Positions 2,319 through 60,684 of a DNA stretch of 64,000 bases are shown in pieces. A program made the position numbers and the translations under genes. Under the pieces are notes generated by a model that saw only the letters and a program-made list of their open reading frames with translations, had not been told where the DNA came from and did not search any database. Positions within the stretch are counted from its first letter, which is position 1. Every line of letters begins with the position of its first letter. The DNA comes from an uncultured virus (IMG/VR IMGVR_UViG_3300009285_001861) (Duplodnaviria > Heunggongvirae > Uroviricota > Caudoviricetes): the IMG/VR virus record IMGVR_UViG_3300009285_001861, one strand, 5' to 3'.

Positions 2319-2408
2319 CTACGCACGAGTGCATAAATCCACCCCGGCACAGCTAAGCAATAGCTCTAGCTTCAGGCTCGGAATGGAGTTGGTTGCACGA
2401 TCGAACAT
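2319..2408 (-). CDS. Putative Leu-sensing leader peptide MFDRATNSIPSLKLELLLSCAGVDLCTRA
   Basis: 29-codon ORF between promoter and Leu tRNAs; Leu codons CTG, CTA, CTA, TTG, CTT, TTA. Confidence 0.75.
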   Translation of the reverse strand: MFDRATNSIPSLKLELLLSCAGVDLCTRA

Positions 2409-3733: not shown

Positions 3734-4204
3734 CTAACCCTTCAGGGTAGGGGTGAGTATACCCATCACATCGATGACCATGAGTATCATATTGGCCACA
3801 TCGATCCCCTCCCAGGCAATCGCCGCCGGGGAATTACGGAGGGCAACCTCTCCTAGGGTGTTGGGGTTTTCAAAAGCCAGCCGGAACTCTTCCATCTCCT
3901 CTTGGACTCTCTTGAAGAGTTCTACAGGGCTGCATTCCTTCCATCCATCCTTGTGGTCGTTAGCTCGAAGCTTCCGTTCCATCAATTGGGCAAACACCTG
4001 AACTTCAGGTCGTAGGGATCTCCATTGGGATGCATCATGGCCCAATCCCTCTACCGTCTCACCAACCCCACGGAGCAAATTGGCTGCCTCAGTGACCCTA
4101 TTGGCCGTTGTGCTGAGGGGGATTTTGGGGAGGGCAGGAACGGTCTTGTAGACGGCCCAATTCGGGTCACTTTTGGATTTCATGGCCTGATTACTCAATT
4201 TCAA
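3734..4204 (-). CDS. MazG-like nucleotide pyrophosphohydrolase-domain protein
   Basis: EEMEEF...EGIDVAN acidic helical motif. Confidence 0.5.
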   Translation of the reverse strand: MKLSNQAMKSKSDPNWAVYKTVPALPKIPLSTTANRVTEAANLLRGVGETVEGLGHDASQWRSLRPEVQVFAQLMERKLRANDHKDGWKECSPVELFKRVQEEMEEFRLAFENPNTLGEVALRNSPAAIAWEGIDVANMILMVIDVMGILTPTLKG

Positions 4205-4803
4205 GCCCCGCGGCCCGGAACATCGCTAGGCCATCGACAGGCGGAACGCCAGCTTCAAACTGACGCTTCATTTGGGTAACTGCCTTCAACAGTTCCTCAA
4301 TGCTCATGGTGAGCACAGCTTTTCCTAGTTCGGTGACTTCGTCCTGTGGGTGATGACCCACTTGGCCGACTTGAGCCATACCGTTCTTGTGCCGGTATTC
4401 CCATTTTCGGCCATCCACCGCTATCACGAGATGGAGCTGCTGGATTTGGAAGGAATGGGGCTCTTCAATTGGCGGGGTCTTGGCTGTCATTCCCCTTTTA
4501 CCCCAAGCTAGGGATTTTCGAGGGGAACAATCTGGAGATACTCATCCAGGACTTCCCAGTTCCGCTCGTCATTGTTAGGGGGTGGAGCCACGCTAGGCTG
4601 GTCAGGATGCTTCGGGTCCAGGCAATCGTAGCAAAGTCGGGTGCTTCCAACGGTTGGTGAGATCCCACAACCTGTGCAGTAGTCGAAAATGTCTAGAGTT
4701 GGCGCCATGTTCGTGTACCCCCTGATATTGGGTGTACCATCGGGCGAATACCGCCAAGTGTGGCAACCTGGGACACACTGTATCTTTTCTCCTGGAAACG
4801 GGT

Positions 4804-11500: not shown

Positions 11501-11548
11501 TTACCGGCGGCAGGTCCTATGGGGTCGATGGGGGTTCGTGGTCTTCAT
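11501..11548 (-). CDS. Putative His-sensing internal leader MKTTNPHRPHRTCRR
   Basis: Short ORF directly 5' of tRNA-His; stop inside hairpin CCGCCGG/CCGGCGG. Confidence 0.55.
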   Translation of the reverse strand: MKTTNPHRPHRTCRR

Positions 11549-11763: not shown

Positions 11764-11796
11764 TCAATAACAGTGGTGATGCAGATGCTGGTTCAT
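11764..11796 (-). CDS. Putative His/Cys/Tyr-sensing leader peptide MNQHLHHHCY
   Basis: ATG AAC CAG CAT CTG CAT CAC CAC TGT TAT TGA upstream of Tyr-Cys-His tRNAs. Confidence 0.8.
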   Translation of the reverse strand: MNQHLHHHCY

Positions 11797-13757: not shown

Positions 13758-13780
13758 AAACGAAACGAGAAACGAAACAG

Positions 13781-13855
13781 TCGGGGAGACTGGATTCGAA
13801 CCAGCGACCCTCCGGTTCCAAGCCGGATACTCTAACCAGACTGAGCTACTCCCCG
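13781..13855 (-). tRNA. tRNA-Pro(TGG)
   Basis: CGGGGAG acceptor; loop CTTGGAA. Confidence 0.93.
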
Positions 13856-13905: not shown

Positions 13906-14001
13906 TTAGGCTGCGGGCGGGGCGGCTGGACCCACGCACGCCACCACGCAAGCGGCTGTCGCCGCTGGTGCTGTGTTGGTGCTGTGGGTCGAGAGGTTCA
14001 T
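13906..14001 (-). CDS. Putative Ala/Pro-sensing leader MNLSTHSTNTAPAATAACVVACVGPAAPPAA
   Basis: 10 Ala + 4 Pro in 31 codons, between promoter and Pro-Ala tRNAs. Confidence 0.78.
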   Translation of the reverse strand: MNLSTHSTNTAPAATAACVVACVGPAAPPAA

Positions 14002-14010
14002 GGTCCGTTC

Positions 14011-14038
14011 AGTATAGTGACAGGTTATAGGATGTCAA
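14011..14038 (-). promoter_or_regulatory. sigma70-type promoter of Pro-Ala operon
   Basis: TTGACA-N16-TATACT. Confidence 0.78.
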
Positions 14039-25929: not shown

Positions 25930-26349
25930 TCACTGCTGCTGTTGCTGGGGTTGCTGGCGGGGTTGTAGGGTGACGATCCCTAGCGTAGCGGATTTGGAGT
26001 TCGCACGGTGCCCTGCACCCAACCCCGTAAGGGAGGCATCGGTGCTGCACCAAAGTGGACCAAGGGAATTCATTGAGTGCGCCGGACCTGGATCGAACAG
26101 GTATGTCTCCCTCTTCAGGGGAGTGCATGGACCACCACTGCCACCGACGCGAACGCCAAGGCGCCGCCCGGTAAACTTGTCTGTGGATCCAGTGCTCATA
26201 GTGCGCGAGGCCGGGTACGATCCGGCGACTTCTCGATTATCGGTCGAGTATTCTTCCACTGAATTACCCGCGCATGCTGCGTCAGCTGCCATCGTCGAAG
26301 CGATGGCGCCGGTAATGCACGGGCTAGCAATGTGGAGGGAGGGGTTCAT
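25930..26349 (-). CDS. Leader/read-through ORF spanning tRNA-Ile and tRNA-Phe, ending QPRQQPQQQQQ before Gln tRNAs (internal ATGs at 26199, 26073)
   Basis: 139 open codons starting just after the promoter; Ile x3, Phe, Gln x8 each placed before the cognate tRNA. Confidence 0.7.
   Translation of the reverse strand: MNPSLHIASPCITGAIASTMAADAACAGNSVEEYSTDNREVAGSYPASRTMSTGSTDKFTGRRLGVRVGGSGGPCTPLKRETYLFDPGPAHSMNSLGPLWCSTDASLTGLGAGHRANSKSATLGIVTLQPRQQPQQQQQ
26078..26150 (-). tRNA. tRNA-Phe(GAA)
   Basis: CTCCC-CTGAAGA-GGGAG. Confidence 0.85.
26202..26273 (-). tRNA. tRNA-Ile(GAT)
   Basis: CTCGA-CCGATAA-TCGAG (C33). Confidence 0.85.
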
Positions 26350-27750: not shown

Positions 27751-27807
27751 TTAACCCTTTCGGGTCAATCCGGCGGTACGTGTTCGCGTCGTGGTGAAGA
27801 ATCTCAT
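27751..27807 (-). CDS. Putative Thr-sensing leader MRFFTTTRTRTAGLTRKG
   Basis: 6 Thr codons (ACC, ACG, ACG, ACA, ACC, ACC); stop in hairpin GATTGACCC-GAAA-GGGTTAATC. Confidence 0.8.
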   Translation of the reverse strand: MRFFTTTRTRTAGLTRKG

Positions 27808-27828: not shown

Positions 27829-27857
27829 AGTATAGGGATTCCAACGGGACCTGTCAA
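27829..27857 (-). promoter_or_regulatory. sigma70-type promoter of Thr operon
   Basis: TTGACA-N17-TATACT. Confidence 0.82.
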
Positions 27858-32860: not shown

Positions 32861-33733
32861 CTACTTCCACCACGTGTCGGTTGGGGTCACGGGAGCCGCT
32901 CGCTTGTGGCGAGTTGCCAGGAACCGGGCCTCAATGATACGGGCTGCCTCCTCCCCTACGTGGGCACCGGGGCAACCATTGCTAATGGGATACCCCTCCA
33001 GGTAGTTGTCGATCTCATCGTAGGAGATGCCCAGCTCGGTCTCGTCAGCCTGTGCGGGGTTGCCGTCCAGGAGGTCCGCTGTGGGGACCTTCAGGTAGAT
33101 GGCCGGGTCTGCCCCAAGTTCCTTGAGGAGTCGGGCACCCTGCCTCTTGGTGAGGCCAGCAAGGGGAAGGATGTCTGCCCCACCGTCACCGAACTTAGTG
33201 AAGAACCCAGTTACGGACTCAGCCGCATGGTCCGTACCAATGACCAGCAGGTTCTTCTGCCCCCCAATAGCATATTGGGCCACCATTCGCATTCGGGCCT
33301 TGATGTTGCCCTTGTGATAGTCGGTCAGGTCTTCCCCCATGGACTTCTGGAAGGTTAGCGTGGCAGAATCCACTGCATCTTTGATGTTGTAGGTGACGGT
33401 CACATCGGGCCGGATGAACTGGAGTGCCCGCTGGGCATCTACTTCATCCTTCTGGGTCCCGTGGGGGAGCCGGACAGCGACGAAAAATGCCTCATAGTCT
33501 TTCGTGGGCCCCTGATAGGCTGGGTGGTCAATGAGGAGGTTGACCGCCATCTGGGCAAGCCTGCCAGCCAGGGACGAGTCCTGGCCTCCGCTGATACCGA
33601 GAACGTACCCCCTGGCCTTCGAGGCCACCAAGTAGTCCCTCAAGAACTGGACTCGCTCCTTGATTTCGGTTGCTGGGTCAATTGTGGGCTTGACCCCGAG
33701 TTCTTGGATGATCCGTGCTTGCATTGTTGTCAT
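32861..33733 (-). CDS. nadE: Ammonia-dependent NAD+ synthetase
   Basis: [44 protein letters not shown] motifs. Confidence 0.95.
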
Positions 33734-34110: not shown

Positions 34111-34731
34111 ATGAAACTCTGTCAAAAATGTGGTTCCAGAATCCCAGCCCATATCGTGATTGAGGGTAAGAAAAGGAACCTCAAGAACAGGCTGTACTGC
34201 TTTGAATGCTCACCCTTCAAGGCTCACAATACCAAAGTGTTGGCTCCTAGCCCACACTCTCCTACCCCCACCCCCACGGATAAGCGGCGGCATACATCTG
34301 ACCACCAACCAATCCAGCAACTTACCTGTGAACGATGTGCCAGAGTCTACCTCCACAATGTCAAGCATAGATCCGGGCATACTCTCCGTTACTGTAACAG
34401 TTGTATGGTCAACACACGTCGGTTTGAGCGCAAACTCAAGTGTATTGAGTATATGGGAGGTGAGTGCCAGAAGTGTGGGTACTCAAAATGTTCACGAGCC
34501 TTCCATTTCCACCACCTCGACCCCTCTTTGAAGTCCTGGCAAATTAGCGGGGGCCATTGTAGAAAATGGGAGCGAGTCAAAGAGGAGCTTGATAAGTGTG
34601 TTCTCCTATGTTCCAATTGCCACATGGAGCTTGAGGAGGAACTGGAGGTACTCAAGCGAGGCCCACGTACAACAGTTCTCAATGCCCTAAAAAAAGCGAT
34701 CTCTGAAAAAAGTGGGCACACTGGAACTTGA
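34111..34731 (+). CDS. Free-standing HNH homing endonuclease
   Basis: GGECQKCGY...FHHLDP...ELDKCVLLCSNCHME; 3' end overlaps tRNA-Ile antisense. Confidence 0.9.
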   Translation: MKLCQKCGSRIPAHIVIEGKKRNLKNRLYCFECSPFKAHNTKVLAPSPHSPTPTPTDKRRHTSDHQPIQQLTCERCARVYLHNVKHRSGHTLRYCNSCMVNTRRFERKLKCIEYMGGECQKCGYSKCSRAFHFHHLDPSLKSWQISGGHCRKWERVKEELDKCVLLCSNCHMELEEELEVLKRGPRTTVLNALKKAISEKSGHTGT

Positions 34732-34998
34732 ATCCAGGACCTTCCGCTTATCTTCCTACTCCCAATTTCGTGGGCCGGGGCTCCCCGTTGTAGGCTGGAC
34801 TATATCTTCACCATCTCAGGTGCCTGGGTATCTAGTCTCTACGGCGCTCTCCCTTTTCGGAAGTTCCCTCGGTATTGTCTCCAGCATGACCCGCTGAGAG
34901 TTCCACCGATATCCCCAGATCCACCTACAGGATTCACGTTCCCCTGTAGGGCTCATACACTAAGGCGGATGCTCTGACCAAAACTGAGCTATGTGCCC
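34713..34998 (-). tRNA. tRNA-Ile(TAT) interrupted by a group I intron
   Basis: Exons 34962-34998 and 34713-34751 join to TCCGC-CTTATAA-GCGGA. Confidence 0.82.
34752..34961 (-). ncRNA. Group I self-splicing intron (210 nt, no ORF)
   Basis: Core elements CCGTAGAGACTA and GAAGATATAGTCC; terminal G; P1 CUU^A/UGAG with U-G at the 5' splice site. Confidence 0.88.
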
Positions 34999-35017
34999 GA
35001 ATTAAGCTAAGAAATCG

Positions 35018-35096
35018 CGCTCCGGGTGGGGCTCGAACCCACATATAGAGACCTCTTAGAAGGAGGTTGCCTGACTTCCAATTAGGCTACCGGAGC
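35018..35096 (-). tRNA. tRNA-Arg(TCT)
   Basis: ACCTC-CTTCTAA-GAGGT. Confidence 0.88.
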
Positions 35097-35103
35097 AAAG
35101 TAC

Positions 35104-35517
35104 TCAGACAGATATTCGTCTGAGCCTAGTGCCGGTAGCGGTAACCGAAACCGCGGTGTGCTCCTTATGAGAGAGCAACCCGCCCTGTGTACCGGCATTC
35201 AGCAATGCATCGGTGCACATTCGATTTGAGGTACGAGTAGAGAGGTTCGAACTCCCGACGCGCGGGGCGTAGGCCCGCCGCTCTTCCGCTGAGCTATACT
35301 CGCGTACAAAACCTTGCTGCCCACCGCACGGGTGAGCGGGTCGCACGACGAGACCAGCAGTTGAGGTGTAGTGATTCATGGTGCATGCAGAGAGAATCGA
35401 ACTCTCATTTCGCAGATTAAGAGTCTGGCGACCTGCCGTTGGCCCATGCATGCGTGTTTGCTCCCGAGGTTTTCCCTCGGGGCAACGCTTGAGCATGGAT
35501 GTGGTCAGGTGGTTCAT
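35104..35517 (-). CDS. Leader/read-through ORF spanning tRNA-Lys, Val and CAT, ending AGG CTC AGA CGA ATA before Arg(TCT)/Ile(TAT)
   Basis: 137 open codons from the promoter-proximal ATG; cognate codons in each spacer; internal ATG at 35379. Confidence 0.72.
   Translation of the reverse strand: MNHLTTSMLKRCPEGKPREQTRMHGPTAGRQTLNLRNESSILSACTMNHYTSTAGLVVRPAHPCGGQQGFVREYSSAEERRAYAPRVGSSNLSTRTSNRMCTDALLNAGTQGGLLSHKEHTAVSVTATGTRLRRISV
35130..35196 (-). tRNA. Short tRNA with CAT anticodon (Met or Ile2), reduced D arm
   Basis: 7-bp acceptor, GCTCT-CTCATAA-GGAGC, T arm GCGGT/ACCGC; 67 nt. Confidence 0.65.
35232..35303 (-). tRNA. tRNA-Val(TAC)
   Basis: GCGGG-CCTACGC-CCCGC (C33); A73. Confidence 0.8.
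35379..35453 (-). tRNA. tRNA-Lys(CTT)
   Basis: CAGA-CTCTTAA-TCTG; CCA. Confidence 0.87.
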
Positions 35518-35531
35518 GGGGGTGATCGCAG

Positions 35532-35560
35532 AGTATGGTACGGAATCTATAGGCTGTCAA
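35532..35560 (-). promoter_or_regulatory. sigma70-type promoter of Lys-Val-CAT-Arg-Ile operon
   Basis: TTGACA-N17-CATACT. Confidence 0.75.
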
Positions 35561-35630
35561 TTGCCTGCTTGGTTGTTGTCTCTATCTTACGCTCGTGGGG
35601 GCTGGGTTGGGGAGGAAATCGACCAGGGAC

Positions 35631-38600
35631 CTACTGAAACTGGTGGGCCAACCAACCGAGGAGCAGGCTTAGAGTAGATGTAAAAGCTCCCAGCACAAGG
35701 ATTTCAATCACCCTCTCGGTGGAACCTCGCTCTCGCTGCTCTTTGGTGGTATTGGGCGTTGGATGCATCATCCCAGCAAGGAGGAGTATCCCATAGGCTA
35801 CGGGCATGCTGAGTGGTCTCACCCCAAATTGAGGCACCGCAAACCACCCCCACAGGACGGTCATGACCCAACTGTTCCACAGGGCCAGAGGAACCCCAAT
35901 CACCAACCCTAGGAGGGGTGCCATGCAACCAGATTCCTTGTCGTCAGAACTCATTGATATCTCCTAAATTGGCGCTCTTCACTCTGTCTTTGACCGCTTC
36001 CCGGAGACCAAACCTGTTACCTCCAAGTAGTCCGAGTAACAGTAATCACACATAGCCTTACCATTTATGATGTTTTCATTCCCAGGGGTGCCACCTCGCA
36101 GGCCATGACAGACCTCGCAGGCGTCCTGCCTCATCTCCTGGGACTTTTTCACTCGCTTCGCTGTTAGAGCCGCTTCCAACTGTCCCAGGACCTTGTGTTC
36201 CATATCCTGGAGGAGGACCCCAGCTAGGTAGAGGGCATCATGATCTGGACTTGGCAGGGAATTGACCATCTTCCAGAACTTCTTGGACTTGGGTCCTGAG
36301 TAGTGTTTGTGAATCAACACTGGCTTCTTCTTCTTCTTGGTCATGGTTCTTGTCCTGTTAGCCCAGGTGAGGGGTCAACTGGCTTCGTTGGTTTCGATGG
36401 CTCCCAATCTGGGGCGACCCACACATAGCCCGTCTTACGGCCGAAGTTGTGGGTGTCTACGCCTTCTTCAGGGAAAAGGTCGCGCTGGAGGAGGAAGCTG
36501 TCTCGCTTGGTGGGCCAGGACCCGTTTTCAACCTGAAACCCGAGAGCACATACCTCCTTGATGGTCTTACCAATCAGGTCTTCAATCTTCATCCCCCGAT
36601 CTTCACATTGCTCAGCTAGGGTCATCATCCCCGTAGCCCCGCGAAGGACTAGAATGGCACGAACCCGTCGCTCGATTTCAGCGAACGTCTCCTCGGGAGT
36701 TGATGTGGTGGTAATAGAGTCTGTGATTGCCCAGTCACTTCCGTCAGCTCGGTAGGTCCAATGGTGCGAATGCCGGACGGCTTCCACGGAAGGTCCCCCC
36801 TGTGGAAAGAAGGCAACCCAGCAGGTGTCAAGGTCGTGCCAATTCAGTGCCATCTCAATCCCCTAGTTGCTGTGGTGCTTGCTCTTGGCCTTGCTGGTCG
36901 GGGCCTTGTTCCGCGCTTCGCGGCGAAGATGCCAGGACTTGTGCATTTGCGTCCATCCGGCGACATCCATGAACTCATAGTCATAGCGTTCCCCGACTGG
37001 CCGGTACCACCAGCCCCCAGCATCGGTAGCTAGGTCTCCAAGGAGCTTCATGGCATCTACGAAGTCGGAGTCACAGTCACAATCGGGTCCGTGGTCTTCC
37101 TTGTCGGTAGCAATTTCCCACAGGTCGAACTCCGTAAACCCCTCCTCATCCTCACTCAGGATGAGGACAGCGGTGATGATTTCGTGCTTGAGGAGGCGCT
37201 TGGCGTAATCCTGGATCTTCTCTTCGTTGGTCATCTGGTTCCTTTTTGGGCCTCTCGCTCATGGTCCGTCCCGAGTTGAAGTTGGTGCCTCAACTCAATG
37301 AATCGCTTGATGGCCAAGGTGGGGTTGTCAAAGATCTCTTCAGAGTCTTTCACGAGATGGTCCCCAGTGGCGAACCGCCCATCCTCCAGAGATCGGAGGT
37401 AGAGGCATCCCGTCCCACACATCCCAATATCATACCCAATGTCCAGCTCAAGTACCCGAGCAAGGGCGGTGACTTCATCTTCATGAGTGACCGGTTTACT
37501 TGGCATGGATCACCGAGACCGGCATGGCATTGGACCATACCCACATGCTTCGCAGTTCACATTGTGGCCCATATCTGCCTGCTGGTTACCGCAATCAGGA
37601 CATGTAGCCCAGAACTCATTGTTCTCGAAGGTCACCCCATCCGGGAGATCCTCGTCACAATCTCGTCCCTGCACGTTGACTACCCGTACCTTGTGCCTTG
37701 TCATACGGGCTCCAGCTTCTGGGCGATATCAATGTTGCGCGTAGCCATGGCTACTTTACCCTTCTCTTTAGGACTTCTATGGCGCTTTCGATGCCATCTA
37801 CGCGACCGTGCAGGAACCTCAGGGCATCCTCTCGATAGTTGTCCCTGACAGCATCATCCGCTGCATGAACTGCATTGGCCAGGAGTTCCTCCAACTCGGT
37901 GATCCCTCCCCGGGAGTCCCACCGGGTCGCTACCTCATTGAGGAAGGATGAGATCCTCCCTCGTGCATAGAAAGGATCAAGGGCAGTGCCTCTGAGGCGC
38001 TCTGCAAGGTCTGGCCGGTGAGCGACCAAAACATTGAAGTACACTTGCCCGGGGCGTTGCTCTGGATGTGCCTCAGCATAGGCCATTGCGGTGGCAATGT
38101 ATTCATCGTAGGTCATTGGTTGTCATTGCTGCAAGGGGTCAAGTTGCTTGGAAATGTTGCTGAGAAGTTGGATCATGGCACTGAGGTTGGTGGCCCCGTA
38201 TCCTATGGCGAGGAGCTTGTGGCTCTCCCACGACAAAGGAATCTCCAGAAAAGCATAGCTGCCCTGACCGGAAGGTAATACCCTCAGCGTGGCATTCCTG
38301 TCCAGCTTGCGTCCCAGCCGGACAATCAACTGCTTGGTTAGGTCAATGCTTCGTGCCATGATGCCCCTCAGCCCGTATGGTCCATGCCGTTTGCGATGAG
38401 AATGCTTGCAGCCTTTTTGCTGATCTTGATGAGCTCCTGTGAGCTATCCGCATGCATAACATTCAGGAAGGGGCCCTTGGGCCATCCCGCACCCATGGCA
38501 ACCTGGATACATTGGGGACGCTTGGTCTTGGTTGGGATTTTGGTCATGGCTTGGTTACACTCTTCTTGGTGAGTTTGGCAGAACCCTCCCTGAACCCATA

Positions 38601-41381: not shown

Positions 41382-41406
41382 GGTCTCTCTATCTTGCAAG
41401 CGATCC

Positions 41407-41574
41407 TTAGGATCGCGAGACTGAGAGACTACTACTCCACCACGTAGACGTGTGTCCTACGCAGCGGGTCGAGTGGGATTCAAACCCACGGACGCTTTTC
41501 AGCGCCTCCACGTTAGCAGTGTGGTGCCTTAGGTCTCTCGGCCACCGACCCAGAGTTGTTTCGAGAAGAGTCAC
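41407..41574 (-). CDS. Putative Ser-sensing leader ORF reading through tRNA-Ser(GCT), ending TSTWWSSSLSVSRS
   Basis: TCT, AGT x3, TCA, TCG, TCC in spacer; stop TAA in loop of GCGATCC/GGATCGC hairpin; GTG start uncertain. Confidence 0.55.
   Translation of the reverse strand: MTLLETTLGRWPRDLRHHTANVEALKSVRGFESHSTRCVGHTSTWWSSSLSVSRS
41465..41551 (-). tRNA. tRNA-Ser(GCT)
   Basis: CCACA-CTGCTAA-CGTGG (A31-C39); long variable arm. Confidence 0.87.
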
Positions 41575-49423: not shown

Positions 49424-49534
49424 TCAGGTGGTTGGCCTAATACGCCGTCGTCGCTGCACACGCCCGCAACCTCGCGCCAGCGTTCCGCCGTCACGTCCGT
49501 GGGTTGTCGTCTTGGTGTACATCGAGAAGCTCAT
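49424..49534 (-). CDS. Putative Arg/Gly-sensing leader MSFSMYTKTTTHGRDGGTLARGCGRVQRRRRIRPTT
   Basis: 8 Arg (CGT, CGA, CGG, AGG) + 5 Gly codons in 36. Confidence 0.78.
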   Translation of the reverse strand: MSFSMYTKTTTHGRDGGTLARGCGRVQRRRRIRPTT

Positions 49535-58514: not shown

Positions 58515-58571
58515 TTATGTGCGTTCGGAATCCGATTCGCGCTCTCGCTCTGATGTCGTGTAGGAGTTCAT
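58515..58571 (-). CDS. Putative Glu/Asp-sensing leader MNSYTTSERERESDSERT
   Basis: GAG, GAG, GAA, GAT, GAA; stop at apex of ACGCAC/GTGCGT hairpin. Confidence 0.78.
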   Translation of the reverse strand: MNSYTTSERERESDSERT

Positions 58572-58589: not shown

Positions 58590-58617
58590 AGTATAGGGAG
58601 GAAAACGAAGCTGTCAA
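58590..58617 (-). promoter_or_regulatory. sigma70-type promoter of Glu-Asp-Glu operon
   Basis: TTGACA-N16-TATACT. Confidence 0.78.
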
Positions 58618-59352: not shown

Positions 59353-60438
59353 ATGTTCCCACTATACACCCCTGAAGCGTTCCAGGCAGCAAAATCTTTC
59401 ACCTTACTACCCCTGAAGTGTCAACAGTGCCCCACCACCATCTATCGGACCAAGAAGGCTCTTAAGTACGCAATCCTGAAAGGCAAGGAGAAATTCTTTT
59501 GCCCCAAGTGCCTTCCCCAATCCCAGGTGTCATCCATCGAGGTAGCCTGCCTGACTTGCGGGGTCAAGTTCTTGAAGCGGGCATCCCAATGTAAGAAAAC
59601 CCCCAATCACTTTTGTAGTCGGTCCTGTGCAGTGAAGACCAACAATGTCAAGACCCCCAAGAGGAAGGTTGAGGGCTCCTGTCGAACCTGTCAGAAGCCT
59701 ACACATACCAAAGACCGGTATTGCTCGGATTCCTGTAAGGAGGTGGCCCGTCAAATCTGGGAGGCGGAACGGGAGCTAGAGTGGCAGAAGCCCCCCGTCA
59801 AGGTCAAGGGACCCCGTAAGCCTAGGGCGAGTAGTGGATACAAGAAGATTGGAAGGTCCCCAGCACAAAAGCGGGAGGACGGGAAGGCAGGGGTTGTGGC
59901 CTGGAGGCAACGCACCAAGCTCAAAGCCATTGAGTACAAGGGAGGATGCTGCCAAACATGCGGGTACCGGAAATGTGTATGGGCTCTCTCTTTCCACCAT
60001 GTGGACCCCTCACAGAAGGACTTTGGCATTGGTGGTCGGAATCTTAAGTCCTGGGCCCGTATTCAGGTGGAGTTGGACAAGTGTGTCCTAATTTGTAGTA
60101 ACTGTCATGCAGAAGTCCATGATGCCCTGGACAGCACCCCTGATGCTAAGGCCCATTGGAGGAAACGCCTCAAGATTAAGGCCATTGAGTACAAAGGAGG
60201 TCATTGTTGCCTTTGCGGGTACCACAACTGCAACAGGGCATTGAGTTTTCACCATTTGGACCCGTCCCAAAAGGACTTCAACATCTCCAGGGTTAGTAGA
60301 ACCTGGGAAAGCATACAACCGGAGTTGGATAAGTGTGTCCTACTCTGCATGAACTGCCATGGGGAAGTTCATGCTGGCACTGCTATTTTAGACTCGATGG
60401 TAGACCGTACTGGAATCGAACCAGTTTCTACGGGTTAA
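59353..60438 (+). CDS. Free-standing homing endonuclease with two tandem HNH domains
   Basis: Two copies of KAIEYKGG.C..CGY...LSFHH.DPSQKDF...ELDKCVL.C.NCH.EVH; N-terminal FCSRSC/YCSDSC zinc fingers. Confidence 0.9.
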   Translation: MFPLYTPEAFQAAKSFTLLPLKCQQCPTTIYRTKKALKYAILKGKEKFFCPKCLPQSQVSSIEVACLTCGVKFLKRASQCKKTPNHFCSRSCAVKTNNVKTPKRKVEGSCRTCQKPTHTKDRYCSDSCKEVARQIWEAERELEWQKPPVKVKGPRKPRASSGYKKIGRSPAQKREDGKAGVVAWRQRTKLKAIEYKGGCCQTCGYRKCVWALSFHHVDPSQKDFGIGGRNLKSWARIQVELDKCVLICSNCHAEVHDALDSTPDAKAHWRKRLKIKAIEYKGGHCCLCGYHNCNRALSFHHLDPSQKDFNISRVSRTWESIQPELDKCVLLCMNCHGEVHAGTAILDSMVDRTGIEPVSTG

Positions 60439-60472
60439 AAGCCACGCTGCCCAACCAATAGGCCAACGGTCC
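60398..60472 (-). tRNA. tRNA-Lys(TTT)
   Basis: Loop CTTTTAA; bulged anticodon stem; CCA. Confidence 0.82.
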
Positions 60473-60523: not shown

Positions 60524-60534
60524 TTGGACCTCAG

Positions 60535-60608
60535 CTCCGTGGGCAGGGATCGCACCTGCTCAATAGGCAGTTTAACAAACTGCTGCCGTCCTATTTGGCT
60601 ACCACGGA
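60535..60608 (-). tRNA. tRNA-Asn(GTT)
   Basis: GCAGT-TTGTTAA-ACTGC; G73; atypical T loop TGCGATC. Confidence 0.85.
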
Positions 60609-60633: not shown

Positions 60634-60684
60634 CTAGGCGTTGGCGTTCCGATTCAGTGTTCCAGGTTTCAAGAGGGCGTACAT
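60634..60684 (-). CDS. Putative Asn/Lys-sensing leader MYALLKPGTLNRNANA
   Basis: AAA, AAT, AAC, AAC; stop at apex of GCCAACGC/GCGTTGGC hairpin. Confidence 0.72.
   Translation of the reverse strand: MYALLKPGTLNRNANA

Follow-up and report, generated by a model that had tools for sequence, protein, structure and literature searches.

A five-tRNA operon on the minus strand of a 64,000-nucleotide stretch of DNA from an uncultured virus of the Caudoviricetes (IMG/VR IMGVR_UViG_3300009285_001861), hereafter the window, is probably a promoter-driven member of a phage-wide system in which reading frames matched in their codons to the tRNAs encoded downstream would be translated as "test tracks", placing phage tRNA genes under ribosome-sensed, attenuation-like control. 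The window contains 34 tRNA genes called by ARAGORN, all on the minus strand and mostly clustered by amino acid, and 31 of these are confirmed by Rfam. The match between codons and tRNAs goes far beyond chance only when all of the tRNA groups are pooled, and the focal operon, whose own claim rests largely on relatives, is a member of the system and not its clearest case. The phage is a giant one: its virus record measures 485,040 bp, and the window covers bases 27366-91365 of it. In a blastn search against phages, the window sequence is identical to GenBank LR745208.1, an unannotated entry named "uncultured phage"; 2 of the 64,000 positions differ between the window and the record.

Codon-tRNA matching across the tRNA groups

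Most tRNA groups in the window follow a short, ATG-started frame that is rich in the amino acids of the downstream tRNAs. These leader open reading frames (ORFs) are 10-47 codons long and lie between the tRNA groups and sigma-70-like -10 elements situated 9-21 nucleotides (nt) away, and their ATGs have a start context in common (ACCATGAA). Within positions 1-60000, all three sites that match the sigma-70 consensus at 11 of 12 positions, together with two 10/12 sites, occur 9-21 nt before leader ATGs, and the promoter of the focal operon is one of those two. The promoter of the Pro/Ala leader (14011-14038), for example, ends 9 nt before the ATG.

The correspondence was scored as the summed enrichment of each upstream unit's own amino acid, with amino-acid sets permuted among units as the null. 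The 21 upstream units of the window score 43.85, against a permuted mean of 24.38 (standard deviation, sd, 3.66), a value reached by none of 20,000 permutations; the antisense score is 25.63. Six of the units rank their own amino acid first among the 20. The same signal is present at L005, a locus in a 137.5-kb viral contig of a diverged relative (G001) that was found by an alignment-based scan, where 8 units score 19.37 against 7.57 (sd 2.62; 0/20,000 permutations; antisense 5.5). The control phage, Mycobacterium phage Bongo (NC_041970.1), shows no codon-tRNA association across its 12 units (15.72 against 13.14, sd 2.04), the observed value being reached by 2191 of 20,000 permutations. Finally, a blind prediction was borne out: a leader ending in LNRNANA and a stop codon was taken to predict Asn, and the uncalled tRNA behind it is tRNA-Asn(gtt) (60534-60608, minus strand), which default ARAGORN does not call but which is found at a lowered ARAGORN threshold (-ps85) and scores 48.6 bits in Rfam.

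The Leu leader contains six Leu codons of five kinds, and every one of its five anticodons has its codon there; the Thr leader uses ACC, ACG, and ACA. In the Arg leader, CGT, CGA, CGG, and AGG occur without AGA, a codon found only ahead of tRNA-Arg(tct). The Gln track ends in QPRQQPQQQQQ and a stop codon, 27 nt before two tRNA-Gln genes. The amino-acid bias is kept between diverged leaders, as in MRFFTTTRTRT vs MKTTTTSTTT for Thr, and QQPQQQQQ vs KQQRQQA, each followed by a stop, for Gln. The leaders for Gln, Ser, Pro/Ala, Thr, Arg, Glu/Asp, and Leu are all stronger than those of the focal operon, which the original prediction had held to be the strongest case; there, Lys ranks 7th, Val 8th, the CAT element 2nd, and Arg plus Ile 2nd, and six other units rank 1st.

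In minimum-free-energy folds, ten of the 11 leaders do better than shuffled sequences (z -0.77 to -2.98), the exception being Arg (+0.34). The leader hairpins have their 5' arm across the regulatory or stop codons and their 3' arm finishing 0-4 nt short of the tRNA. The leaders of single-amino-acid groups stop 6-50 nt before the first tRNA, and read-through is therefore not needed there. At least five T residues are found in the last 8 nt before 6 of the 25 tRNAs with a spacer of at least 18 nt (against a T fraction of 0.21), including Asn, Val, Gln, and His. T-rich short spacers also occur on the minus strand after tRNA-Pro (13778-13792; tgtttcgtttct...) and between Leu(gag) and Leu(tag) (2094-2111; tgtttctttaatgttttc); the former was scored terminator-like, yet another tRNA follows it.

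The focal operon and the frame through its tRNA genes

The 137-codon open frame of the original prediction is present, running from ATG to TGA through tRNA-Lys, tRNA-Val, and a weakly supported CAT tRNA (Table 1) and ending 7 nt short of tRNA-Arg(UCU). Its first ATG sits 14 nt past the end of the -10 element CATACT, and the in-frame ATGs at 35517, 35379, and 35220 open successive spacer test tracks. The codons said to announce each tRNA are likewise in place and in frame, namely AAG (codon 10) and AAA (codon 16) ahead of tRNA-Lys, GTC, GTG, and GTA (codons 57, 58, and 71) ahead of tRNA-Val, ATG (codon 100) ahead of the CAT element, and AGG CTC AGA CGA ATA TCT GTC TGA (codons 131-138) ahead of tRNA-Arg, while the CCA of tRNA-Lys shares bases with the in-frame ATG at 35377-35379 in the CCATG overlap described earlier. 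All five exact cognate codons fell into place in 2 of 20,000 spacer shuffles, and the looser codon rule of the original prediction gives 0.00095 in the same shuffles, both figures being uncorrected for the choice of operon.

Among the five tRNAs claimed, Lys, Val, and Arg(tct) are found by both ARAGORN and Rfam (57.2, 54.8, and 49.8 bits, respectively), and Ile is found by ARAGORN when introns are allowed. The tRNA-Ile(UAU) gene does belong to the operon but lies beyond the segment first described, and a 210-nt intron interrupts it. The CAT element is a weak tRNA call, being reported by ARAGORN only at a lowered threshold (-ps80/85), with a 3-bp D stem, and by Rfam not at all at an E value of at most 10; on the other hand, it folds far better than shuffles (z -3.58), and it is kept in the related proteins P0001 and P0007. 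The idea that each spacer forms a hairpin holds in part. Folding goes beyond shuffles in two of the five spacers, ahead of tRNA-Lys and between the CAT element and tRNA-Arg, but not from Lys to Val (z 0.03) or from Val to CAT (z -0.47), and the spacer from Arg to Ile does not fold. The hairpin ahead of tRNA-Lys is kept in L005, where one pair is changed on both sides (A-U to C-G).

By composition, the guanine-plus-cytosine (GC) content of the focal ORF is flat across codon positions (0.569/0.569/0.584 vs 0.58/0.459/0.611 in genes), its codon-usage score of 0.05 falls between off-frame ORFs and genes and under most genes, and Pfam and PHROG returned no family for the product of 137 amino acids (aa). 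The length of the ORF is unremarkable, since the window holds 92 ORFs of at least 137 aa, and a whole tRNA is contained in 28 window ORFs of at least 60 aa, many of them antisense (175, 134, 132, and 124 aa among these). The occurrence of all three anticodons in frame within the focal ORF was dropped as a candidate signal; it is expected by chance about once in nine and is absent in L005.

Conservation of the frame in relatives, which had been proposed as a check, was found. The frame is open through three tRNAs in the focal operon, through two in the Ile-Phe-Gln operon, where all three ATGs are in phase, and through six in L005, where Lys(ctt), Val(tac), Arg(cct), Ile(tat, without an intron), Thr(tgt), and Ile(gat) all lie inside one 290-codon frame. 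In L005, the track ahead of Val reads VDVVV, that ahead of Arg(cct) KRRRR, and that ahead of Thr(tgt) TTTTSTTT; Ile(tat) is preceded by ATA and Ile(gat) by ATT, and three of the tRNAs end in CCATG. The probability of an open frame under frame randomization and spacer shuffling, respectively, is 0.23 and 0.088 for the focal operon, 0.46 and 0.070 for Ile-Phe-Gln, and 0.004 and 0.015 for L005. Three spacers lack an ATG of their own, and in all three the cognate codons are in phase with the frame continuing out of the tRNA before them.

The frame is also open in six related proteins (P0001, P0002, and P0004-P0007) of 349, 310, 176, 165, 149, and 138 aa, all drawn from a predicted-protein database that can contain open frames only, so that broken frames are undetectable among them; P0004 keeps the Ile-Phe-Gln frame. 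In the relatives of 349, 310, 165, and 138 residues, a single frame covers between two and about seven tRNA-like segments, with matching tracks between the segments. The best conserved stretch is the Lys-to-Val spacer and not the tRNAs: 21 of 21 residues are identical in P0001, and V60 V61 R62 P63 A64 H65 P66 C67 G68 are invariant among the relatives. Invariant positions in one alignment (A1) comprise K10, V57 V58, and R131 R133, and those in another (A3) comprise K10, V60 V61, the Thr run, and the ACC-ATG junction (T49 M50).

Two of the predicted proteins that keep the frame came from a protein search with the 137-aa ORF. Viral contigs searched with 107-aa, 170-aa, NadE, and 137-aa queries gave nothing beyond the phage itself, one DNA-pattern search for relatives was without a match and another matched only G001, and blastn against phages returned the phage itself and short tRNA matches only. 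A metagenome scan recovered two identical copies only, and a look for RNA runs that contain the locus gave none. The operon sequence is identical in the contigs of four DNA runs, with no natural variation there, and the extra pieces at 34796-34876 in those runs are intron cores of other organisms.

Table 1. Parts of the focal operon and other codon-matched leaders in the window (ranks are those of a unit's own amino acid; z values compare folding with shuffled sequences)
Feature	Position	Strand	Details
Sigma-70-like promoter of the five-tRNA operon	35532..35560	-	TTGACA, 17 nt, CATACT; 10/12 consensus matches
137-codon open frame, ATG to TGA	35104..35517	-	Through tRNA-Lys, tRNA-Val, and the CAT tRNA
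Hairpin just past Lys codon AAG, with AAA in the loop	35459..35484	-	z -2.78; 1/200 shuffles
tRNA-Lys(CUU), encoded CCA overlapping the next ATG	35379..35453	-	ARAGORN and Rfam
Lys-to-Val spacer with Val test track (GTC GTG ... GTA)	35304..35378	-	Hairpin 35319-35337
tRNA-Val(UAC)	35230..35303	-	ARAGORN and Rfam
Atypical CAU tRNA or tRNA-like element	35129..35197	-	Short D arm; G at T-loop position 58 by inspection
9-bp hairpin with AGA, CGA, ATA, and the TGA stop, abutting tRNA-Arg	35102..35125	-	-12.9 kcal/mol; z -4.80; 0/200 shuffles
tRNA-Arg(UCU)	35017..35096	-	ARAGORN and Rfam
tRNA-Ile(UAU), intron-split, last gene of the operon	34712..34998	-	T runs after it at 34689-34711
Leader ORF before tRNA-Glu(ttc), Asp(gtc), Glu(ctc)	58515..58571	-	MNSYTTSERERESDSERT, then stop; promoter 58590-58617; rank 1; z -2.50
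Leader ORF before tRNA-Arg(cct, acg, ccg)	49424..49534	-	Ends ...RVQRRRRIRPTT, then stop (CGA CGA CGG CGT..AGG); rank 2
Leader ORF before tRNA-Thr(tgt, cgt, ggt)	27751..27807	-	MRFFTTTRTRTAGLTRKG, then stop; promoter 27829-27857; rank 1; z -2.98
139-codon frame: Ile track, tRNA-Ile(gat), Phe track, tRNA-Phe, Gln track	25930..26349	-	Gln score 8.39, rank 1
Leader ORF before tRNA-Pro(tgg), tRNA-Ala(tgc)	13906..14001	-	Ends ...GPAAPPAA, then stop; rank 1; z -2.22
Leader ORF before tRNA-Tyr, tRNA-Cys, and, further on, tRNA-His	11764..11796	-	MNQHLHHHCY, then stop
Leader ORF before tRNA-His	11501..11548	-	MKTTNPHRPHRTCRR, then stop
Leader ORF before five tRNA-Leu	2319..2408	-	CTG, CTA, CTA, TTG, CTT, TTA; promoter 2421-2449; rank 1
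Leader ORF before tRNA-Asn(gtt)	60634..60684	-	Ends ...LNRNANA, then stop
Ser-rich frame before tRNA-Ser(cga), without its own ATG	41382..41463	-	SSSLSVSRS, then stop; score 4.49, rank 1; z -2.62

Proposed mechanism and competing explanations

In the proposed mechanism, a ribosome would start near the 5' end of the transcript, or at an ATG overlapping the CCA of the preceding tRNA, and then reach the cognate codons. Were the charged tRNA scarce, the ribosome would lag, the RNA just downstream would be free of ribosomes and of the leader hairpin, and the next tRNA could be transcribed, folded, and cut out. With a good supply, the ribosome would run on, less of that tRNA would mature, and the next track would be read. 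In mixed operons, where the tracks would be joined in one frame through the tRNA genes, a single ribosome might thus test the tRNAs in turn. Candidates for the controlled step include termination, folding, and access of RNase P; for mixed operons, the favored options are that translation races tRNA folding or that the hairpin abutting the tRNA blocks processing, and for single-amino-acid groups the favored option is hairpin-based attenuation. The claim that an own-codon frame acts as a sensor draws on the window-wide statistics, their replication in the relative, and the blind Asn prediction. The ORF, its codons, the order of promoter, leader, hairpin, and tRNA, the statistical match, and its conservation are observed; translation of the leader frames, a rise (and not a fall) in tRNA output upon stalling, and the step under control are inferred.

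A stronger form of this mechanism, which is possible but rather less than probable, would have ribosomes translate straight through the tRNA genes, with maturation decided by the race between translation and folding. A stall on cognate codons would allow the next tRNA to emerge bare, fold, and be cut out, and fast decoding would carry the ribosome over the tRNA sequence before it could fold. The cut at the ACC-AUG junction that frees one tRNA would also create a nearly leaderless message for the next track. A mixed operon would then dose its tRNAs one by one and in sequence, giving on-demand replacement of those destroyed by anticodon nucleases or lost through host shut-off.

Several observations weigh against a translated test-track system, or against the place of the focal operon within it. 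No Shine-Dalgarno sequence lies ahead of the leader ATGs, and the genes of the phage themselves use this signal weakly (76 of 172 long ORFs). A consensus scan was without a terminator between any leader and its tRNA. Little or no signal is seen in the Gly, Ser(gct), Ser(gga/tga), Phe, Met, and Leu(caa/taa) units, and no leader is found at the two tRNAs that the phage carries outside the window, suppressor(tta) and Arg(cct). The exact cognate codon, sought in any frame within 75 nt, is not enriched (20 of 78 cases vs 599 of 2574, or 23.3%, for the codons of other tRNAs, and 21 of 78 cases antisense) in a presence/absence test that ignored codon runs, frames, and cluster-level leaders. Pairing of leader to tRNA ("anti-tRNA" pairing) was rejected as a general mechanism, the summed gain being -43.3 vs -38.5 (sd 8.9) for shuffled leaders, and it stands out only for Glu (1/100) and Lys (5/100).

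For the focal operon in particular, the signal is modest (Lys 7th and Val 8th among the amino acids), the frame is open in 23% of frame-randomized and 9% of spacer-shuffled versions, and the six related proteins stem from a source in which broken frames could not appear. Moreover, the tRNAs in through-frames have two open frames each (5/5) vs a mean of 1.06 for the others, which makes a chance frame easier; this excess may reflect selection or may be the cause of a chance frame, and it is not used as evidence. A chance ORF over an ordinary tRNA operon was given up as the main reading once all upstream regions, the permutation tests, the Asn prediction, and the relatives had been taken into account.

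It is also conceivable that classical attenuation operates unit by unit, each leader's hairpin stopping RNA polymerase before its tRNA, with the through-frame a by-product of stop-poor tRNAs, short spacers, and leader ATGs that are in phase by descent. The early stops of the single-amino-acid leaders, the hairpins that reach the tRNA and cover regulatory or stop codons, the T-rich ends ahead of 6 of 25 tRNAs, and the fact that the two through-frames of the window are individually not unlikely (0.23 and 0.46) are all consistent with such an arrangement. We nonetheless regard it as unlikely, given that the consensus scan gives no terminator in any leader, that the L005 frame stays open through six tRNAs (P 0.004) and has relatives of 349 and 310 residues, and that three ATG-less spacers carry cognate codons in the through-tRNA frame. 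More doubtful still is the suggestion that the focal operon is ordinary, its frame and five codon matches coincidental and its conserved spacers processing hairpins, even if the other leaders are real. The abundance of ORFs of at least 137 aa (92) and of tRNA-containing ORFs of at least 60 aa, antisense ones included (28), the codon-usage score of 0.05 and flat GC profile, the ranks of Lys and Val, and the position of AGA and ATA within the strongest hairpin, whose fold could itself be the reason for its retention, all point in that direction. Against it stand the rarity of the five exact codons in shuffles (2/20,000), the stronger tracks of the homologous L005 operon (VDVVV, KRRRR, ATA, and TTTTSTTT), the invariance of the regulatory residues in relatives, and a promoter-ATG layout in common with the clear leaders.

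A role for the codon runs as untranslated RNA, through T-box-like anticodon pairing or as signals for processing or recombination, would accommodate the missing Shine-Dalgarno sequences, the very short 5' leaders, and the conserved hairpins with their compensating change. It is very improbable, however, as the runs follow in frame from an ATG in the common context and end in stops, their enrichment is frame- and strand-specific, and no T-box or other riboswitch family is among the Rfam matches. Finally, similar predicted proteins in public collections might suggest a genuine protein of 137 residues from a gene overlapping tRNA genes, but the product has no family match and no codon-position periodicity, its conservation tracks tRNA segments and hairpins, and its first tRNA segment is swapped for an unrelated one in P0001, making this reading extremely improbable.

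Neighboring elements, known systems, and significance

A candidate group I intron of 210 nt (34752-34961, minus strand) splits tRNA-Ile(UAU) between U34 and A35, and ARAGORN, with introns allowed, finds a perfect cloverleaf around it (gcctt/intron/ataag). The intron matches the full RF00028 model at 23.3 bits (E 0.0022 locally, 1.8e-4 genome-wide), a score that falls short of the gathering score of 50 and passes the rule of at least 20 bits used for split-tRNA calls in bioRxiv 10.1101/2020.01.27.920355. A U precedes the 5' splice site, and a G is the last base of the intron (CUU/a...g/AUAA). The classical tRNA-Leu(UAA) intron occupies the same loop position, and IC3-type is the class name for group I introns of tRNA anticodon loops (bioRxiv 10.1101/2020.01.27.920355). 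The homologous tRNA-Ile(tat) of the relative (L005:3434-3508) is without an intron. According to a 2014 review, all phage introns then known were in protein genes, although phage tRNA genes are numerous (PMC3984707). A 2026 paper mentions intronic sequences in tRNAs of jumbo phages (PMC13037316), and the tRNA-Ile(UAU) intron therefore adds, at most, one more member to a known kind.

An HNH endonuclease gene (34111-34731, plus strand, in an ORF from 33940; phrog_2255, E 1.5e-31) ends 20 nt inside the 3' exon of tRNA-Ile, on the strand opposite to the tRNAs. Its L005 homolog (3842-4414; 38% identity, E 1e-36) lies on the tRNA strand after tRNA-Ile(gat), beside an intron-less array. The HNH protein may act together with the intron as a free-standing homing endonuclease. 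A NAD synthase gene (32861-33733, minus strand; PF02540, E 4.8e-64) lies downstream of the operon, about 1 kb away. Elsewhere in the window, a tRNA at 60398-60472 (minus strand) has an eight-base anticodon loop, given by ARAGORN as (ttta), and could read Lys, stop, or a four-base codon; a 16-codon ORF upstream of it holds a single AAA. Possible suppressor tRNAs are encoded by the phage outside the window (anticodon tta, reading TAA; G000:C1:222464-222540) and by G001 (anticodon cta, reading TAG; L006:307-381).

Leader-peptide attenuators of amino-acid operons include trpL, hisL, leuL, thrL, pheL, and ilvL. The principle of this ribosome-mediated transcription attenuation is set out in PMC1183508. 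Like the leaders described here, they consist of a short ORF between a promoter and the regulated genes, with runs of cognate codons overlapping hairpins, and the multivalent leaders of the phage (Glu+Asp, Pro+Ala, and Tyr+Cys+His) recall thrL and ilvL. The phage system differs in that its regulated genes are tRNA genes, and not biosynthetic enzymes, and its product would therefore feed back directly on the sensor. It also differs in having no consensus U-tract terminator that could be found, very short 5' leaders without a Shine-Dalgarno sequence, a frame that runs through tRNA genes in mixed operons, and a phage as its carrier.

T-box riboswitches likewise read the supply of one tRNA by means of a codon and control genes serving that amino acid, but with one specifier codon in a conserved fold, unlike the codon runs in a start-to-stop frame seen here; Rfam gave no T-box at the gathering score over the whole window (tRNAs only), nor at an E value of at most 10 on 34400-35800. 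The leader ORFs mgtL and mgtP (Salmonella), tnaC, and pyrL act via RNA folding or Rho, and not via an intrinsic terminator. In these, as proposed here, ribosome speed on the codons of a tiny ORF changes downstream RNA structure or the fate of the polymerase; unlike here, they control protein genes, and we know of no leader of this type that runs through its target. The tRNA array of Bongo resembles that of the window in having many closely spaced, same-strand tRNA genes and a neighboring HNH endonuclease gene, but lacks both the codon-tRNA association and leader ORFs with a common start context.

No description of leader ORFs before tRNA genes was found in open-access papers and bioRxiv. To our knowledge, this would also be the first case of an open frame maintained across tRNA genes. 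Because the units are small and have sigma-70-type promoters, they lend themselves to direct tests in laboratory bacteria, and another use could be as codon-specific reporters of tRNA supply. The reasons that phages carry tRNA genes, and the way in which they set the dose of them, are debated, the main ideas in PMC10264068 being codon compensation and escape from tRNA-cleaving defenses. If the proposed system is real, leader-peptide attenuation would be extended from amino-acid operons to RNA genes, and a gauge that reads the supply of each tRNA and also makes that tRNA would be a direct homeostat of translation capacity during infection, and a plausible sensor of host attacks on tRNAs.

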